Positions 49,705-56,299 of a stretch of 64,000 nt of DNA are shown piece after piece. Source of the stretch: Vicinamibacteria bacterium (lineage in GTDB: Bacteria > Acidobacteriota > Vicinamibacteria > Marinacidobacterales > Marinacidobacteraceae); assembly GCA_964291235.2 (NCBI GenBank), contig OZ219816.1:1184001-1248000 (forward strand), read 5' to 3'. Position 1 is the stretch's first letter, and the number at the start of each line of letters is the position of its first letter. The notes beneath the pieces were generated by a model. That model saw nothing but the letters and a program-made list of their open reading frames with translations. It had not been told where the DNA came from and did no database searches. The position numbers and the translations under genes were made by a program.

Positions 49705-49849
49705 GACCGAGCCCCTTCTCCCGGGCCGCCGTGGCCCGGGAGGAGGCGGGTGGAATTCGTCCGGTGGCGCCCGCCGCATTGCCGCCTCGGCGGGGTTTCC
49801 GTCATCATTGCGAGCCGCACTCCTCTTTCCGCAAAGGTTGCATTCCAAA

Positions 49850-52414
49850 ATGAAGACGAAATTCCGTTCCCGCCTCGCCTTCCGGTCGGCGCTGGTGTTG
49901 CTGGTAGCCGCCTTTACGGCGGCGCCCGTGTTCTCCCAGGACGCGCCGCCCACCATCGAAGAGAAGACCTCCGGGATGGAGCCGATTTCCGGGTTCGTGC
50001 CGCTCTTCTGGGACGAGCGCACGGGGCACCTGTTCGCCGAGTTCGCAGAAATGGACGAGGAGTTCCTCTATTCGGTTTCGGCGGCTTCCGGCCTGGGCAG
50101 CAACCCGATCGGGCTGGATCGGGGACAGATCAGCCGGCGCGCCATCCTCAAGCCGATTCGGGTCGGCCCGCGGGTGCTGCTCATGGAACCCAACTACCGC
50201 TTCCGTGCCGTCAGCGACAACCCCGACGAGGTGCGCGCGGTACAGGACGCCTTCGCCCCCTCGGTGCACTGGGGCTTCCAGGTGGTGGCGGAAACCGGAG
50301 AGCGGGTCCTCGTGGACATGACCGACTTCTTCCTGCGGGACGCCCACGGTTCCGCAGCGCGGATCCAGCGCGCCGGGCAGGGGACCTACCGGCTGGACCG
50401 GGACCGGAGTGTCTTCTACCTGCCGAACATCAAGGGCTTCCCCGACAACACCGAAGTGGAGACGATGCTGACGTTCACGAGCGACCAGCCCGGGCGGCTG
50501 GTAACCGGCGTCGCCGCCAGCGGGGACGCGGTGACCCTGCGGCACCACCATTCGCTCGTGCGGCTGCCGGGACCGGGTTTCGAGGTCCGGGTGGCCGACC
50601 CCCGCATCGGGGTGAACGGCCCCACCTACATGGACTACGCGACCCCGATCGACCAGCCCATGACGGTGCGGCTGACCGCCCGCCACCGGCTTGAGAAGGT
50701 TGATCCCACCGCGGAACGTTCGGAGGTCGTGGAACCGATCGTGTACTACCTCGACCGCGGCGTCCCCGAGCCGGTGCGCACCGCGCTCCTCGAGGGCGCC
50801 CGCTGGTGGGCCGAGGCCTTCGAGGCGGCCGGATTCATCGATGCCTATCGGGTCGAAGTGCTGCCGGAGGGAGCCGACGCCCAGGACATCCGCTACAACA
50901 TGATCCACTGGACGCATCGCCGCACCCGCGGCTGGTCGTACGGGGGAGGGGTCCAGGATCCGCGAACCGGGGAGATCATCAAGGGCAACGTGAACCTGGG
51001 TAGCCTGCGGCTCCGCCAGGACCACCTCCACGGGGTGGGTCTGGTGGCGCCTTTCGACGGGGCCTCCGGCGCTCCTCCCGCCGGGCTGCCGCCGGATCCG
51101 GACGGACCCCACTCCTGCGGGCTCTCCGCCGCCCCGGGCTTTTCCTATCTGGCCCAGGTGGGCGAGGGCGCGTCGCCGGTGGACCTGGCACTCGCCCGGG
51201 TCGCCCAGCTTTCCGCCCACGAAGTCGGGCACACGCTCGGCTTTCCGCACAACTACATGAGTTCGACCTACGGCGGCCGGGCCAGCGTCATGGACTACCC
51301 GGCGCCGCTCGCGGTCCTCGAGGACGGCGTGGTGAAGCTGGATGACGCCTACGGGGTCGGGGTGGGCTCCTACGACATCCTGTCCGTTCGCTGGGCCTAC
51401 GGACAGTTCTCGCCGGAGGAGACCGCCGCGGCGCTCGACGCCATCATGCAGGAAGGGCTGATGTCCGAGACGCGGTTCATGGCCCACACCGACAACTACA
51501 TCGGCGCGGGCGCCCATCCGCTCGCCTCCGTCTGGGACAACGGCCAGGACCTGGTCCGGCACCTGGGACGCGAAATCGAGATCCGCCAGGCCGGGCTCGA
51601 CGCGTTCGGGGAAAACGTCATCCGGCCGGGCGAGGCCATGTCACTGCTCGAGCCCGTGCTGGTTCCGCTCTACCTGCACCACCGCTTCCAGATGAAGGCG
51701 GCGCTGAACACCGTCGGCGGCCAGGAGTACTACTACGCGGTGCGGGGTGACGGACAGCGACCGGTCGCGTCCGTTCCGGGAAGCCGCCAGCGGGAGGCGC
51801 TCGACATCGTCCTCCAGACGCTCGAAACCGACTTCCTGGCGCTGCCGGAACGGATCATCGAGATGATCCCTCCGCCCGCCTACCGGGAAGCCGGTGGCGA
51901 GACCTTCGACGGCAACACCGGCCTGGTATTCGACCCGCTCGCGGCCGCGGACACCTCGGCTGACTACACGGTGGAGCTCCTGCTCCACCCGGAGCGGATG
52001 GCGCGGCTCGTGAACAATCACGCCCTGGATCCCGACCAACCCGGACTCGCGGAAGTGCTGGATCGACTGGTCGAAGAGACCTGGGGCGCCGCGGAGCCGG
52101 AGGGCAGCTACCGGCGGGCGGTGCAGGACGCCGCCGAGCGGAGCGTCCTGAACGGCATGATGCGCGAGGCGATGAACCCGGACAACCCGGCGCGGGTGCG
52201 GGCGGTCCTCGAGGATCGGCTCATGGCCCTCGGGGGAACGCTCGGTGACATGGACGGTAGAACGCCTCACGAGACGTTGGCCGCCGCCGACATCCACCGG
52301 TTCGCCAACCGCGACGAGAGCCTCGACCCGAACGCCAGCCGTCCGGAGCGGCCGCCGGGATCGCCCATCGGGGGCGCGAGCGCTTCCGGGACGCGGAGGG
52401 TTCCGGGTCGCTGA
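49850..52414 (+). CDS. Secreted zinc-dependent metalloprotease (DUF5117/DUF4953-type)
   Basis: Signal peptide; HHSLVRLP, W..AFEAAGF, DIRYN, DPRTGEIIKG, HEVGHTLGFPHN and SVMDY Met-turn. Confidence 0.9.
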   Translation: MKTKFRSRLAFRSALVLLVAAFTAAPVFSQDAPPTIEEKTSGMEPISGFVPLFWDERTGHLFAEFAEMDEEFLYSVSAASGLGSNPIGLDRGQISRRAILKPIRVGPRVLLMEPNYRFRAVSDNPDEVRAVQDAFAPSVHWGFQVVAETGERVLVDMTDFFLRDAHGSAARIQRAGQGTYRLDRDRSVFYLPNIKGFPDNTEVETMLTFTSDQPGRLVTGVAASGDAVTLRHHHSLVRLPGPGFEVRVADPRIGVNGPTYMDYATPIDQPMTVRLTARHRLEKVDPTAERSEVVEPIVYYLDRGVPEPVRTALLEGARWWAEAFEAAGFIDAYRVEVLPEGADAQDIRYNMIHWTHRRTRGWSYGGGVQDPRTGEIIKGNVNLGSLRLRQDHLHGVGLVAPFDGASGAPPAGLPPDPDGPHSCGLSAAPGFSYLAQVGEGASPVDLALARVAQLSAHEVGHTLGFPHNYMSSTYGGRASVMDYPAPLAVLEDGVVKLDDAYGVGVGSYDILSVRWAYGQFSPEETAAALDAIMQEGLMSETRFMAHTDNYIGAGAHPLASVWDNGQDLVRHLGREIEIRQAGLDAFGENVIRPGEAMSLLEPVLVPLYLHHRFQMKAALNTVGGQEYYYAVRGDGQRPVASVPGSRQREALDIVLQTLETDFLALPERIIEMIPPPAYREAGGETFDGNTGLVFDPLAAADTSADYTVELLLHPERMARLVNNHALDPDQPGLAEVLDRLVEETWGAAEPEGSYRRAVQDAAERSVLNGMMREAMNPDNPARVRAVLEDRLMALGGTLGDMDGRTPHETLAAADIHRFANRDESLDPNASRPERPPGSPIGGASASGTRRVPGR

Positions 52415-52504
52415 CCCCGCGGAGCGGCGAGTTCGGCTTGACTCGCCGCTCCCGGTTTCTTGTCCGGATTCTGCATACTTCCGCGGTAGAGATCGACGCA
52501 GACT

Positions 52505-52559
52505 GGTTCTCCGCTCGGCGGGAATCCCACCAGCCTTGACGTCGCACGGGCACGGGAGC
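52505..52559 (-). repeat. Left part of an inverted REP-like repeat unit interrupted by the cassette and IS110
   Basis: GGTTCTCCGCTCGGCGGGAATCCCACCAGCCTTGACGTCGCACGGGCACGGGAGC matches the reverse complement of the 121-bp unit at 54271-54783; the match resumes at 54116. Confidence 0.8.
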
Positions 52560-52577
52560 CCCCTATAGGATCGGCGA

Positions 52578-52767
52578 CGTCCTGCGGGAGCTGAGATTCA
52601 GCTGCCGTTGTATCAACTCAGGTTGGCCAATCCGCCGGGAGTACTAACTGAGCCCCGGTGCTGCGAGCACCTACGGTGGACACGTACCCCGACGGATGGC
52701 CGTGATGGACGACCAGTGGAGAGTCGGTTCCAATCGAGAACCAGTATAGGGGCTGGACAGCATCGCG
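52578..52767 (+). ncRNA. Predicted IS110 bridge RNA (5' hairpin, target-binding loop, donor-binding loop); ends approximate
   Basis: 5' hairpin AGCTGA-GAT-TCAGCT (52589-52603). Stem 52625-52644/52684-52701 encloses GAGCCCC + hairpin + CGGTGG. Stem 52701-52716/52753-52767 encloses TGGAGAGTC + hairpin + TATAGG. The guides match the flanking target and the end-joined donor. Confidence 0.85.
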
Positions 52768-52812
52768 GCGCGGCGGACCTCCGACGGAGCGCAAGCTCGA
52801 AGGAAGACAGCG

Positions 52813-54075
52813 ATGAAGCAGAAGCTGAGCTGGTTCGTGGGCATCGACTGGGGCGAGCAGAGCCACCAGGTGTGCCTGTGCGACAGGCGCGGGAAGGTGC
52901 GCGGGGAGCGCGCCTTCGCGCACAAGGGATCGGGGCTGGCGGCCCTGGTGAAGTGGCTTAGGAAGCAGACGGGTGTGCCGCCGGCGCGGGTGGCGGTCGC
53001 GATCGAGCGGCCGGATGGGGCGGTGGTGGCGACGCTGCTGGAGGCGGGGTTTGCGGTCTATGCGGTGAACCCGCGGCAGACGAGCCACCTGCGGAAGTTC
53101 ATCTCCCACCCGGGGCACAAGAACGACCGGCGGGACGCCCGGATGTTGGCCACCACGCTGCAGGCGAGCCTGGCGGGGTTCCGGCTGCTGGTGCCGCTAC
53201 CGGGGTTGGTGCTGCGGCTGCGGGAGCGGACCCGGACGGCGGACCGTCTGCTCCAGGAGCAGGTCCGGCAGTGCCTGCGGATCCGGAGTGCGCTGGTGGA
53301 CTACTTCCCGCAACTGCTGGAGGTAGCCGGCGAGGCGAAGAACCTGGGGACTCCGTTCTTCCGGGAGTTGTGGGCTCGGGCTTCTACGCCGGCGAAAGCG
53401 CGGAAGGTGTGGTTGTCCACGTTGGAGAAGCTGGTTCGGCGGTATGGAGTGACCCGGATCAGCGCCGCGCGGATCCAGGCGTTGTTCCGGGAGCCGGCGT
53501 TGGTGATGGCGCCGGGGGCGACCGAGGCGTCGGTGGAGACGATCCGCACGGCGCTCGCGCAGTTGGAGGTCGTGCGAGCGGAACTCGTCCGGGCGGAGGG
53601 CCAGATGACCCAGCTGCTGGACGAGTTCTCGGAGACGGCGGAGGCCGGGGGTGGTTCGGATGCCACGGGCCTGGATCTGGTGAGCGCGTTGCGCTCACGC
53701 CCGGGCGCGGGGGACAAGGCGCTGGCCCGGTTGTTCGCCTGGGGCTTCGAAGCGCTCTCGGAGGGGAACTACCGCCGTCTGCGCGCCTACTGTGGAGTAG
53801 CCCCGATCGAGGACCAGTCCGGCAAGTCCGCACAGCTCCGGCAACGGCGCGCCGTTCCCAGTTCGCTGCAACACGCCACCTACATCCTGGCGCGGGGGGT
53901 CGTCCGCTGGGACGAGAAGGTGGCGGCCTACAACCGGAAGTTGAAGGCGGAAGGGAAGCACACGGCCCGGCGCCACCGGAGCATCGCGGATCAACAACTC
54001 CGGGTGCTGTGCGCGATGGCCCGGAACCGAACCCTCTTTGATCCCAACTTCTCCCAGAAGCGGAGGGCCGCCTAA
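52813..54075 (+). CDS. IS110-family DEDD recombinase/transposase
   Basis: RuvC-like DEDD residues GIDWG, VAIERP and KNDRRDA; C-terminal domain PGAG...YCGVAPIEDQSGKS with the conserved Ser; RBS AGGAAG upstream. Confidence 0.95.
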   Translation: MKQKLSWFVGIDWGEQSHQVCLCDRRGKVRGERAFAHKGSGLAALVKWLRKQTGVPPARVAVAIERPDGAVVATLLEAGFAVYAVNPRQTSHLRKFISHPGHKNDRRDARMLATTLQASLAGFRLLVPLPGLVLRLRERTRTADRLLQEQVRQCLRIRSALVDYFPQLLEVAGEAKNLGTPFFRELWARASTPAKARKVWLSTLEKLVRRYGVTRISAARIQALFREPALVMAPGATEASVETIRTALAQLEVVRAELVRAEGQMTQLLDEFSETAEAGGGSDATGLDLVSALRSRPGAGDKALARLFAWGFEALSEGNYRRLRAYCGVAPIEDQSGKSAQLRQRRAVPSSLQHATYILARGVVRWDEKVAAYNRKLKAEGKHTARRHRSIADQQLRVLCAMARNRTLFDPNFSQKRRAA

Positions 54076-54080
54076 CGCTC

Positions 54081-54086
54081 TTGCGT
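54081..54086 (+). promoter_or_regulatory. Outward-facing -35 element (TTGCGT) in the IS110 right end
   Basis: After end-joining at CC it lies exactly 17 bp from TAGGAT (52566-52571) in the left end. Confidence 0.7.
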
Positions 54087-54115
54087 TCTCGTGGAAAGTC
54101 CACCGGGAGAACTGG

Positions 54116-54206
54116 GCCGGCCTCCAGGCTGGCACAGCGGGCCGCAGGCCCGCGTCGGCGCAGACCCCACCCGTCGGCATGGTTCCCGTCTCGGCCCGTA
54201 CCCCAC
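54116..54206 (-). repeat. Right part of the inverted REP-like repeat unit
   Basis: GCCGGCCTCCAGGCTGGCACAGCGGGCCGCAGGCCCGC...CATGGTTCCCGTCTCGGCCCGTACCCCAC is a diverged reverse complement of the tandem unit. Confidence 0.78.
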
Positions 54207-54270
54207 TCGGCGCGGTGGCCCGGTTTTCTCTGTCGCCAAATGCACCGGTTCTGGATGTCGCTTGACGCAG

Positions 54271-54783
54271 GGCTGGTGGACTTCTCCCCGAGAGCGGAAC
54301 CATCGTGACGCTGGAGAGTCCGTCCGGCCGCCCGCCTGCGGCGGGCTGTGCCGGCCTGGAGGCCGGCGTTCCCGTGCCGGCGCGACATCAAGGCTGGTGG
54401 GGTGGCCGCCGAGAGGGGAACCATCCTGACGCTGAAGGGTCCGTCCCGCCGCCCGCCTGGGGCGGGCTGTGCCGACCAGAGGTCGGCGTTCCCGTGCCTA
54501 CGGGACATTAAGGCTGGTGGGGTGGCCGCGGAGAGGGGAACCATCGTGACGCTGAAGGGTCCGTCCCGCCGCCCGCCTGCGGCGGGCTGTGCCGGCCTGG
54601 AGGCCGGCGTTCCCGTGCCTGCGTGACATCAAGGCTGGTGGGGCGGCGGCCGAGAGGGGAACCGTCCTGACGCTGAAGGGTCCGTCCCGCCGCCCGCCTG
54701 CGGCGGGCTGTGCCGGCCTGGAGGCCGGCGTTCCCGTGCCTGGGCGACATCAAGGCTGGTGGGGTGGCGGCCGAGAGGGGAAC
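54271..54783 (+). repeat. Tandem array of ~4.3 copies of a 120-121-bp REP-like palindromic unit
   Basis: Units start at 54271, 54392, 54512, 54633 and 54754. Each full unit has the hairpins GCCCGCC-TGC-GGCGGGC and GCCGGCC-TGGA-GGCCGGC followed by GTTCCC. Confidence 0.92.
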
Positions 54784-54826
54784 TATCTGGCGTTGATCTC
54801 GGCGGCGGGAGTACGAGAAATCCGCG

Positions 54827-56299
54827 CTAGTGGTGGGTCGGAATCGGTAAGGCGAGGACCGACGCGCGGGCCCGGATCATCATGTGGACGGCGGGGTCCG
54901 GCCGGAAGAAGGAGCCGGCGTGGCCCTGGTCGTAGCCGAGCACCAGGAGATCCCGCGGACCGGTGAGCCGCGCGAGTTGGCGGGGCGGGTTGCCTTCCGC
55001 GCGGATGATGGGAACCCGGACCCGGTAGAGATCGGCCATCCGTTCGATGGCCTTCAGCACGGAGGCGACGTCGCCGCCGCTCTCGAGACCCCGGCCGATG
55101 AAGGAGGGGGGCGTCACCAGCACGGCGGCGAGCGGGATGCGGAACTGCCGGGCCAGTCCGATCGCGGTGTCCGCGGCGCGCAGGGTGGCCTCCACGTCGG
55201 TGACCGGGATCACGAGCCGTTCCCACGGAAAGCTGCCGCCCGGGATCAGGACCGGGCACGAAAAACGCGCCATGGTGGAGAGGAAACGCGCCGCGTTCAG
55301 GCCGATCCGGGCGGCGAAGGAGGCCTCTCCGTGGTCGATGAGGACGCAGCCGGCGTCCGGCCGGGCGGCGTCGAAGGGATCGTCGCCGGGTGGGATCCTG
55401 GTAACCCGGTCCGCGGGGACATCGAAGTCGTCGGGAGGCTCGACGCCCTCGGGGGCGACGATGCGCAACCGGCGCGCTCTCGAGGTGCGGAACAGGTACT
55501 CCGCTTCGCGCCAGGCGACCTCGGGGAGCGGCCGTTCGGCGAAGACCACGATGTGACTCCCGAACTGGAGCGGGAACAGGGACTTCCCCTCGCGGAGGAA
55601 TTCGGCGGCGCCCGGAGCGACCTCGGGCTCCCCGGTGATCAGGAGGCGGTCTCCCGCCTCGATCACCGCGTCGCCGTCCGGCACCACGAAGCGCCCGCCC
55701 CGGTAGATGCCGGCGACAAGCCACTTGCGGGCGCCGAGGTCCCTGAGCTTCACGTTGACCGCGGGCGAGGTGGGCAACACCTGGATCTCCCGGATCTCGC
55801 CGTGACCGAGGCCCAGGGAGGCCTCCACCTGGTGGGAGCGTTCCACCCGGTTCCGGATCTGGCTCGCGATGACGCCGGGCCGGGCGATGCTTTCGGCTCC
55901 GGTGGCCCGCAGCCGCCCGGCCCGGTGGGATTCGCGCAGGGTGCCAATGGTGGCCGGACGGGGCGTCAGGTCGGCCGCCACCCGGCAGACCTCGATGTTG
56001 ACGGTGTCCTGGTCGGTGGCGGCGATGACCCACTCGGCCCCGTCGCCGGCGGCGGCGGCGAGTGCCAGCGCACTCGTACCGTCGCGGAGCAGGGTCTCCA
56101 CCGGCCGGCCGGCGGCATCCTCGCGGAGGCGGTCCAGTTTCTTCGGGTCCGTGTCGAGCACCACCACCCGCCGCTCGCCGGCAAGCTGGCGCGCCAGCTC
56201 CCGCCCGGTCTGCCCGGCGCCGACGATGACGACCCGAGGGAGGTCGTGGGGGGACGGCGCTTCACTCTCCGGAGAGAGGTCCGGAGAGCGTTCAGGCAT
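54827..56299 (-). CDS. TrkA-N/TrkA-C (RCK) protein fused to universal-stress-protein-like domain(s)
   Basis: VVIVGAGQTG, DGTS, ATDQDTVN, VPDGDAVIEAGDRLLITG; C-terminal DLLVLG...ARASVLALP (USP-like). Confidence 0.8.
   Translation of the reverse strand: MPERSPDLSPESEAPSPHDLPRVVIVGAGQTGRELARQLAGERRVVVLDTDPKKLDRLREDAAGRPVETLLRDGTSALALAAAAGDGAEWVIAATDQDTVNIEVCRVAADLTPRPATIGTLRESHRAGRLRATGAESIARPGVIASQIRNRVERSHQVEASLGLGHGEIREIQVLPTSPAVNVKLRDLGARKWLVAGIYRGGRFVVPDGDAVIEAGDRLLITGEPEVAPGAAEFLREGKSLFPLQFGSHIVVFAERPLPEVAWREAEYLFRTSRARRLRIVAPEGVEPPDDFDVPADRVTRIPPGDDPFDAARPDAGCVLIDHGEASFAARIGLNAARFLSTMARFSCPVLIPGGSFPWERLVIPVTDVEATLRAADTAIGLARQFRIPLAAVLVTPPSFIGRGLESGGDVASVLKAIERMADLYRVRVPIIRAEGNPPRQLARLTGPRDLLVLGYDQGHAGSFFRPDPAVHMMIRARASVLALPIPTHH

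Follow-up and report, generated by a model that had tools for sequence, protein, structure and literature searches.

The 64,000-nucleotide window analyzed here, a stretch of contig OZ219816.1 from a Vicinamibacteria bacterium (Acidobacteriota), carries what we judge, with a probability of about 0.9, to be an intact IS110-group insertion sequence of 1536 bp with a CC core at each junction that recombines under RNA guidance. An IS110 recombinase and a bridge RNA in the left end, with guides matching the element's own target and donor, had been proposed for this locus in an initial annotation made from the sequence alone. Each motif coordinate given there for the two loops, the flanks, and the element ends was found again on rereading. 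All positions below refer to the window, and all features lie on its forward strand.

Element boundaries, copies, and empty target sites

The element spans 52564 to 54099 and is flanked by CC at 52562 to 52563 and again at 54100 to 54101. The genome contains five near-identical copies (0, 0, 1, 18, and 18 differences), three of which are 0 to 1 bases apart over 1536 bp, and the reading frames are open in all five. The junctions are the same in 5/5 copies, GAGCCC-CC on the left and CC-ACCG on the right, placing the chromosomal left half of the target (GAGCCC) at 52556 to 52561 and the right half (ACCG) at 54102 to 54105. Occupied sites have CC on both sides, while the empty site, GAGCCC-CC-ACCG, has a single CC. 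The uninterrupted 31-nt target site occurs exactly at two places in the genome and near-exactly at many, and the 12-nt target GAGCCCCCACCG is found at 21 exact places. The element lacks terminal inverted repeats, and the same core dinucleotide is found at both junctions. Donor and target diverge at the bases immediately flanking CC, which leaves CC as the only possible shared dinucleotide. The two ends of the element differ greatly in length: 249 nt on the left (52564 to 52812) versus 24 nt on the right (54076 to 54099).

The right half of the target is carried by a dispersed 16-nt motif, CCACCGGGAGAACTGG, which lies at 54100 to 54115 here and of which the 3.45-Mb genome contains 88 exact copies. 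The right half of this motif occurs 107 times, with many and varied 6-mers to its left. All five element copies are at GAGCCC-type sites, and 16 perfect GAGCCC-type sites are still unoccupied. The right flank is conserved for ∼40 nt in all five copies, as part of a longer element would be. Element-free empty sites rule out this assignment: the flanks are joined there without the element, so the flank is target and not element.

The recombinase

The recombinase gene (52813 to 54075) follows a ribosome-binding-like GGAAG (52802 to 52806) and encodes a 420-amino-acid protein with both IS110 domains, an N-terminal RuvC-like domain (PF01548, residues 9 to 166, 4.6e−28) and a C-terminal Tnp domain (PF02371, residues 292 to 373, 1.4e−08). 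The NCBIfam model NF033542, "IS110 family RNA-guided transposase," scored 139.7 bits (E value of 1.2e−40), 0.3 bits short of its cutoff of 140, a shortfall that we largely discount, as the Pfam matches and the fold are in agreement. The DEDD tetrad (D12, E65, D105, and D108; counterparts in IS621 are D11, E60, D102, and D105, as given in the part of Hiraizumi et al. [PMC11208158] used here) is invariant both among 10 and among 42 sequences, and in the set of 42 the same holds for S336 and G337.

An AlphaFold model of the recombinase (pLDDT of 87.9) had its best Foldseek matches in the Protein Data Bank to IS621 (8wt6_D, E value of 2.3e−11, TM score on target of 0.76) and ISCro4 (9t56_B, TM score of 0.77). 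Identity to these two recombinases is 18 to 20% by structure superposition. The fold match, domains, and catalytic residues together upheld the assignment of the protein to the IS110 family. The initial annotation had also called the recombinase larger, which is explained by a helical insert of ∼70 amino acids, at about residues 166 to 235, between the two coiled-coil helices of the model; all 42 aligned clade members (42/42) fall in the same length class.

The bridge RNA scaffold

A covariance model of the left end, R1, matched the bridge RNA scaffold at 52625 to 52772 with 155.8 bits. In 90/94 related loci it gave exactly one full-length match just upstream of the recombinase gene, and in its own genome it matched only the five element copies. 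Compensatory changes were found in 23/26 stem pairs among 63 distinct sequences, and 94.1% of the cells of the model were paired versus 32 to 47% when the partners were slid. In the clade alignment, loop positions are hypervariable and stems are conserved. A search of Rfam over positions 51500 to 55500 gave 0 matches at E values up to 1.

The scaffold contains two loops. The target-binding loop and its outer stem (helix 2, with covariation) occupy 52630 to 52697, with 52630 to 52644 pairing with 52684 to 52697. Within it, an inner hairpin, GGTGCT-GCG-AGCACC, at 52657 to 52671 (helix 3, 96.8% paired) is followed by TA. The 6 bp assigned to this hairpin in the initial annotation do form here, but only 4 are modeled as conserved in relatives. 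The donor-binding loop and its outer stem occupy 52699 to 52769, with 52699 to 52707 pairing with 52761 to 52769 (helix 4, 96.6% paired, compensatory changes in 8/9 pairs). Its inner hairpin, GGTTC-CAATCGA-GAACC, at 52726 to 52742, followed by AG, has a conserved TCGA in its loop and was left out of the covariance model as pairs.

Both loops are preceded by a 5′ stem-loop in the minimum-free-energy fold (52586 to 52606). Its T52592-A52600 pair is changed to C-G in the copies at C2:869038 and C2:2040971, and the same double change is present in contigs of sequencing runs X1, X4, and X5.

Guides match the flanks and ends of the element

In bridge RNAs, left guides correspond to the top strand and right guides to its reverse complement, as laid out in the portion of Durrant et al. 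(PMC11208160) on which we rely, and the guides identified here follow this scheme, as the initial annotation had claimed. The left target guide, GAGCCCC (52650 to 52656), consists of the six bases of the left target half and the first core base, and the right target guide, CGGTGG (52674 to 52679), is the reverse complement of CC-ACCG. In the donor-binding loop, the left donor guide GTGGAGAGTC (52716 to 52725) matches the right end GTGGAAAGTC (54091 to 54100), made up of the left donor half GTGGAAAGT (54091 to 54099) and the first core base, with one rG-dT wobble. The right donor guide, TATAGG (52745 to 52750), is the reverse complement of CC-TATA, with which the left end starts (CCTATA, 52562 to 52567, including the core CC). 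When the left end was shuffled (n = 20,000), single guide strings appeared in fractions of 0.039, 0.133, 0.008, and 0.031 of the shuffles, and all four appeared together in 0/20,000 with any arrangement accepted.

The relatives allow guides and flanks to be compared across independent insertions, using one representative per distinct target loop. At the left junction, guide and flank of the same element matched in 31/55 representatives, compared to 3/2,732 cross-controls; at the right junction, the corresponding figures were 34/54 and 16/2,750. The donor guide matched the element's own end in 11/18 cases and another element's end in 4/304. Representatives lacking a guide match numbered 24/55 on the left and 20/54 on the right. 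Element boundaries in relatives were taken from alignments, since ungapped boundary walking was unreliable; strict patterns found left junctions in 44/90 loci, a loose pattern found right junctions in 75/90, and both were found in 33/90. The right-junction test was anchored. An unanchored version accepting any 6-mer of the 3′ side of the loop gave 254/2,484 cross matches because conserved GGA and C runs matched the element end. Relatives with other flanks therefore carry correspondingly different loops, the covariation whose absence had been named beforehand as grounds for abandoning the bridge RNA interpretation. In a 63%-identical element, for example, the guide reads AGGCCCC and the flank reads AGGCCC-CC. 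On the donor side, the wobble position is A/A or G/G in relatives, and those with a TACAGG right donor guide have left ends that start with TGTA. It is on this natural covariation that the description of the element as "reprogrammable" in the initial annotation would rest.

Both right guides cover the core CC, while both left guides cover the first C and then have G, a mismatch to the second core base. The proposal that left guides reach only the first core base is correct for this element but is not a fixed trait, as the left guide covers both core bases in 21/38 distinct relatives. Across the clade, left guides are 7 to 10 nt long and may or may not pair with the second core base. Nearly all clade members have a CC core, and both right guides contain the GG that reads it. 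In a group at 42% identity, the left junction reads TC and the right junction CC, and the empty repeats nearby are one C shorter. The left boundary of a group at 32% identity could not be placed by alignment, and the right end of a group at 36% identity lies beyond the stretch examined.

One further base in each loop follows the right guide. G52751, the handshake base of the donor loop, complements target position 7 (C52561), and 32/35 distinct elements show this complementarity; permutations gave a mean of 17.7, and 0/10,000 reached 32. In the target loop, A52680 complements donor position 7 (T54099) and is a putative handshake base by analogy with IS621, as far as the mechanism is set out in the excerpted text of PMC11208158. 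Nearly all alignment rows keep the G-A that follows the right target guide, and the donor has AGT as its last three bases ahead of the core.

A putative split promoter and a model for transposition

A −35-like hexamer, TTGCGT (54081 to 54086), lies in the right end, and a −10-like hexamer, TAGGAT (52566 to 52571), lies in the left end. The arrangement TTGCGT, 17-nt spacer, TAGGAT arises only when the right and left ends are joined, and no sigma-70-like site was found for the integrated state in 52300 to 54400. Among the 23 distinct elements listed for which both junctions are known, 21 have TTGNNN 19 to 20 nt before the core and 17 have TANNNT 2 nt after it. This suggests that a promoter may be rebuilt across the joined ends, a proposal made at the sequence level.

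By analogy with IS621, the element would excise as a circle. Joining of TTGCGT in the right end to TAGGAT in the left end would then create a sigma-70-like promoter driving a bridge RNA of ∼200 nt with two internal loops, followed by the recombinase gene. The DEDD/Ser recombinase would exchange strands at the CC core, and once this exchange had occurred, A52680 and G52751 would base-pair at position 7 with the other DNA. The outcome would be placement of the element in GAGCCC-CC-ACCG within the dispersed repeat motif. Transcription, circle formation, and catalysis are presumed here from the behavior of related elements.

Alternative explanations

Is the element still mobile? Its copies might be fossils that retain bridge RNA anatomy although movement in this genome has ceased, which we consider improbable. 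Such a reading would fit with the 16 unoccupied perfect GAGCCC-type sites, with the mismatch of the left guides to the second core base, and with the contigs of the sequencing runs, in which no circle junction (right end joined to left end) was seen. Yet three copies are nearly identical, none of the five reading frames is interrupted, the recombinase retains its catalytic residues, and both variant copies keep the 5′ stem pair through a double change. In addition, contig depth was ∼5-fold higher for the element than for unique flank in two runs (130.8 versus 24.8 and 67.2 versus 11.4), although contig depth does not equal copy number. Two contigs contain joints near the element boundaries. 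A contig of run X4 connects 52563 to 54103 through a single other letter and has 27 letters on the shorter side. Excision at this locus was rejected as its source; a repeat variant with G at that place is present in the genome, so we read the joint as a paralogous empty repeat copy. A contig of run X5 joins 52590 to 54100 at a depth of 3, with a side of 28. Weighing the evidence on both sides, we conclude that this is a genuine bridge RNA element from a divergent, Acidobacteriota-centered clade and that it is probably active.

Far less credible is the proposition that the left end is a structured leader for translation or stability of the recombinase mRNA, that the protein itself picks the site, and that the loop matches are by-products. 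The RNA does lie directly 5′ of the gene, with the ribosome-binding-like GGAAG between them. A leader, however, would not need to carry sequence from both strands of the target, nor from both strands of the element's own ends. The hypervariable loops also follow the flanks across dozens of guide sets that are independent of one another, with matches in 0.1 to 0.6% of cross-controls, as the handshake base follows target position 7. We regard as negligible the chance that the matches are coincidental in a GC-rich, repeat-rich region or that the shared flanks belong to a longer element, since even in a genome of 68% G+C no shuffle reproduced all four matches, and the flanks kept for ∼40 nt beside every copy are joined without the element at two exact and many near-exact 31-nt sites.

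Comparison with known systems and distribution

The bridge RNA interpretation places this element beside IS621 of Escherichia coli, with which, on the basis of the sections of PMC11208160 and PMC11208158 drawn on here, it shares many features: the DEDD RuvC-like domain, coiled coil, and Tnp domain with Ser-Gly; a long left end that carries the RNA, opposite a short right end; a pair of internal loops with the same guide-strand scheme; a core dinucleotide at each junction; handshake bases after the right guides; a promoter split between right and left ends; and a target in a repeated extragenic motif. The differences, within the same sections, are also clear. The IS621 recombinase has 326 amino acids (PMC11208158) versus 420 here with the coiled-coil insert, and the two proteins are 19 to 20% identical. 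The core is CT in IS621 and CC here. The left target guide of IS621 has 9 nt and includes both core bases, versus 7 nt and the first core base here, and its right target guide has 4 nt versus 6 nt (PMC11208160).

ISCro4, also called IS622 (9t56), was the best sequence match among solved structures (E value of 2.6e−07, covering the RuvC and Tnp parts), with S336-G337 aligning with its SG. Its fold compares with the recombinase model at TM scores on target of 0.75 to 0.77 and 18 to 19% identity. The host of ISCro4 (Perry et al., preprint 10.1101/2025.05.14.653916) is an enterobacterium, while the clade described here comes from other bacteria. Elements of the IS1111 group have the same recombinase family and RNA-guided principle (seekRNA/bridge RNA), but it is a long right end that holds their RNA, and their subterminal inverted repeats are long. 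Membership of the present element in this group was rejected, given its 24-nt right end and an RNA model that matches the left end only. ISPpu10 and ISPpu9 of Pseudomonas putida, in the partial descriptions consulted, are likewise IS110 elements that insert into extragenic repeats with many identical copies, in another host and with other guide sequences.

Clade records come from Acidobacteriota, Gemmatimonadota, Rhodothermales, and Alphaproteobacteria and include 55 distinct natural target-loop sets. Close relatives have GAGCCC or AGGCCC before the same CC-ACCG, subvariants of one dispersed host motif. The CC core, guide rules, coiled-coil-tip insert, occurrence in at least four phyla or classes, and natural retargeting, of which the GAGCCC and AGGCCC relatives would be an instance, may point to a separate, uncharacterized lineage of bridge recombinases, a tentative proposal to which we give somewhat less than even odds. 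A full-text literature search found no paper combining IS110, "Acidobacteri," and bridge RNA, although supplements of papers from 2024 to 2025 may list the clade. Bridge RNAs were predicted for 85.7% of catalogued IS110 elements in the part of Durrant et al. (PMC11208160) cited here. As a further example of a mechanism first reported in 2024, the element is well supported but was to be expected, and it opens no new question.

The bridge RNA mechanism can be read from sequence alone in a lineage whose recombinase is 18 to 20% identical to the two studied enzymes and which is hosted by uncultured Acidobacteriota (Vicinamibacteria) and by several further phyla. The dozens of natural guide-target pairs, the conserved handshake rule, and the conserved split promoter can help in choosing new orthologues for genome engineering. 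Should the lineage prove active, programmable recombination would gain an independent scaffold, and guide rules could be studied in a natural data set.

Guides that change with the flanking DNA

When positions 52300-54400 were read and each block was re-read, the motifs of the initial annotation were all borne out, letter for letter. [quoted passage not shown] At the junctions, the left flank GAGCCCC (52556-62) meets the left end of the element, CCTATA (52562-67), and the right end, GTGGAAAGTC (54091-100), meets the right flank, CCACCG (54100-05). The four guide strings appeared singly in 3.9%, 13.3%, 0.8%, and 3.1% of 20000 shuffles of the left end and never all together.

Relatives were collected from 61 related genomes, 10 of which (own genome included) gave a match at E ≤1e-30, and from a scan of one genome per species that yielded 80 loci with 36 to 82% identity. 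Their record titles name Vicinamibacteria and other Acidobacteriota, Longimicrobiales/Gemmatimonadota, Rhodothermales, and Alphaproteobacteria. Nine aligned left ends share a conserved scaffold with variable loop positions, and a covariance model was built from them (149 positions, 26 pairs). Of the 94 loci searched with this model, 90 had a single full-length match, in every case immediately upstream of the gene; no match was found at loci L023, L028, L075, and L111. In the window's own genome, the model matched the five element copies only.

The initial annotation had proposed testing whether guides covary with flanks, and in these relatives they do. For each locus, the predicted left junction consisted of a 6-mer taken from the 5′ part of the target loop, any two bases, and the complement of the right donor guide. 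This prediction was found upstream in 44 of 90 loci and, with one representative per distinct target loop, in 31 of 55, compared to 3 of 2732 mismatched loop/locus pairs. The right junction, anchored as a donor-guide 6-mer (≤1 mismatch) with the complement of the 6-nt right target guide immediately after it, was found for 34 of 54 representatives versus 16 of 2750 mismatched pairs. The donor, searched as eight bases of the left donor guide plus a trailing CC, was present in 65 of 90 loci overall and for 11 of the 18 distinct guides; among mismatched pairs, the count was 4 of 304. Missed junctions may reflect truncated copies, other registers, mismatches, or wobbles.

Individual relatives follow the same pattern. 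An 82%-identical element in another genome has the same guides and the same target. A 63%-identical element has the guide AGGCCCC and the flank AGGCCC-CC, and it carries G in both the donor guide and the right end where the window element has a wobble. More distant groups have wholly different guides that match wholly different flanks, for example GGCGTTCC with GGCGTT-CC and GCTTGG with CC-AAGC.

The left target guide extends no further than the first core base, with G as the next base, in the window element and in the two relatives closest to it. The remark in the initial annotation that the left guides cover only the first core base is thus right for this element, yet it describes a trait that varies in the clade, since both core bases are covered in 21 of 38 distinct relatives and only the first in 17 of 38.

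Bridge RNA scaffold

Among 63 distinct sequences, 94.1% of cells were paired, versus 32 to 47% with partners slid by 1 to 3 columns, and both sides had changed in 23 of the 26 pairs, in an alignment that was fitted to the covariance model and thereby somewhat favors the structure. Within the 5′ stem-loop (52586-52606), T52592-A52600 is replaced by C-G in two variant genome copies and in metagenome contigs of three runs, a paired T-to-C and A-to-G change that keeps the base pair.

Contigs of run X5, which is labeled a viral metagenome, match only the conserved scaffold between the loops (window 52677-52709) and continue on both sides with other guides, like those of the 37%-identity group. Three loci of the 36%-identity group, from another genus (L013, L021, and L029), have a recombinase frame of 514 aa with a long C-terminal extension and a target-loop hairpin that is ∼14 nt longer; at L013 and L029, the guide-predicted target GGAGCG-CC-GGAC is present ∼80 nt upstream of the insertion. 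Four loci of one genome in the 42%-identity group (L010, L020, L027, and L034) are identical to one another over >600 bp upstream of the left end of the element, and the element there seems to be nested in a larger repeated unit.

Bases next to the guides and a putative promoter split between the ends

In 32 of 35 distinct elements, the nucleotide that follows the right donor guide is the complement of target position 7, a count reached in 0 of 10000 permutations (mean, 17.7); in the window element, G52751 faces C52561. The base after the right target guide is A in nearly all alignment rows and faces a conserved T that ends the left half of the donor. Both fit the handshake guides described for IS621 in PMC11208158.

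For the 23 distinct elements in which both junctions were located, the top-scoring promoter includes a TTGNNN-type hexamer that precedes the core by 19 nt in 17 elements and by 20 nt in 4 others. The same 17 elements have TANNNT 2 nt after the core in the left end, and the 17-nt spacer between these hexamers arises only with the ends joined. The window hexamers are TTGCGT (54081-86) and TAGGAT (52566-71), and no sigma-70-like site was found in the integrated locus (52300-54400). By analogy with IS621, we infer that the window element would be transcribed, form a circle, and be catalytically active.

Copies and target sites

The 1536-bp stretch 52564-54099 occurs five times in the 3.45-Mb, two-contig genome, and the four other copies show 0, 1, 18, and 18 differences from the window copy. 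Every copy is bordered by ...GGGAGCCCCC on the left and CCACCGGGAGAACTGGGCC... on the right, apart from an A in place of G in the right flank of one. These flanks are also found directly adjoining, sharing one CC: the 31-nt site has two exact occurrences and 40 with ≤5 mismatches, and the 12-nt target occurs 21 times. The conserved flanks thus belong to the target rather than to the element, which adds 1536 bp and one CC on insertion. No dinucleotide other than CC can be the shared one, because target and donor differ immediately before it (C and T, respectively) and immediately after it (A and T, respectively). Contig depth over the element was ∼5× that of the unique left flank in two runs, which agrees with five copies, although depth cannot safely be read as copy number.

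The right half of the target belongs to a 16-nt motif, CCACCGGGAGAACTGG, of which the genome has 88 exact copies, one of them at window 54100-54115. The 13 letters at its start are found 107 times, and the 6-mer in front of them varies widely (GAGCCC, 16; GGGCCC, 13; GCCCCC, 12; AGGCCC, 10; others); in 4 cases, the element's own end precedes them. Sites of the GAGCCC type hold all five element copies, matching the left-guide prediction.

The motif is found in several repeat contexts, sometimes tandem, and also flanks related elements in same-genus genomes and in another genus. The contexts include repeat arrays such as the tandem array of a 121-bp unit right of the insertion (54288-54787; 4.1 copies, 91% matches); the reverse complement of this unit resembles the target surroundings without the ∼20-nt block that holds the target. 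The motif also lies inside a repeat of a few hundred base pairs (26 matches with a loose pattern in the genome; for example, C2:994833, C1:49498, and C2:1931089, all on the minus strand of the respective contig). This repeat, which resembles a miniature inverted-repeat element, terminates in mutually inverted copies (one end contains ...AACAGCCTGTGGTGAAACCCCC..., the other ...GGGGGTTTTGCCACAGGCTGTT...). Single-copy Y1 transposase genes of the PF01797 family are associated with extragenic repeats in other bacteria, and this genome has a single PF01797 match (C1:16598-16834; 33.2 bits, above the cut-off). The genes on either side of the element are convergent. Upstream lies an 868-aa open reading frame (49808-52414) whose translation includes an HEVGH zinc-protease-like motif; after it comes a terminator-like hairpin (52421-52452).

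Recombinase and relation to known IS110 systems

The 420-aa recombinase (52813-54075) matches PF01548 (4.6e-28) and PF02371 (1.4e-08). Its score against NCBIfam NF033542, IS110 family RNA-guided transposase, is 139.7 bits, 0.3 under the 140-bit cut-off, so automatic annotation may leave the clade without that name. D12, E65, D105, D108, S336, and G337 do not vary in either of two clade alignments (10 and 42 members) and are counterparts of IS621 residues named in PMC11208158. Among solved structures, sequence comparison gave only ISCro4 (E, 2.6e-07) and IS621 (E, 3.3e-06) as relatives. An AlphaFold model (pLDDT 87.9, pTM 0.81) superposes on IS621 chains (E, 2.3e-11; TM on target, 0.72 to 0.77; 19 to 20% identity) and on ISCro4 (18 to 19% identity); the next structural matches are TIGR-TasR and Nop5-type proteins. 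In the model, the extra length is predicted to form short helices (∼residues 166 to 225) between long coiled-coil helices (131 to 164 and 236 to 273).

A full-text literature search found no paper joining IS110, Acidobacteri, and bridge RNA; supplementary tables may list the clade. Perry et al. (10.1101/2025.05.14.653916) took 72 orthologues from their database. In architecture, the window element fits the IS110 group as delineated by Durrant et al. (PMC11208160), who predicted bridge RNAs in 85.7% of catalogued IS110 elements, and by Hiraizumi et al. (PMC11208158). Compared to the group as described there, the differences are quantitative: the window element has a CC core, longer guides, and partial core pairing by the left guides, and its recombinase has a coiled-coil insert and 18 to 20% identity to those of IS621 and ISCro4. 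Given this shared architecture and the earlier bridge RNA predictions, the window element is a further example of a described mechanism.
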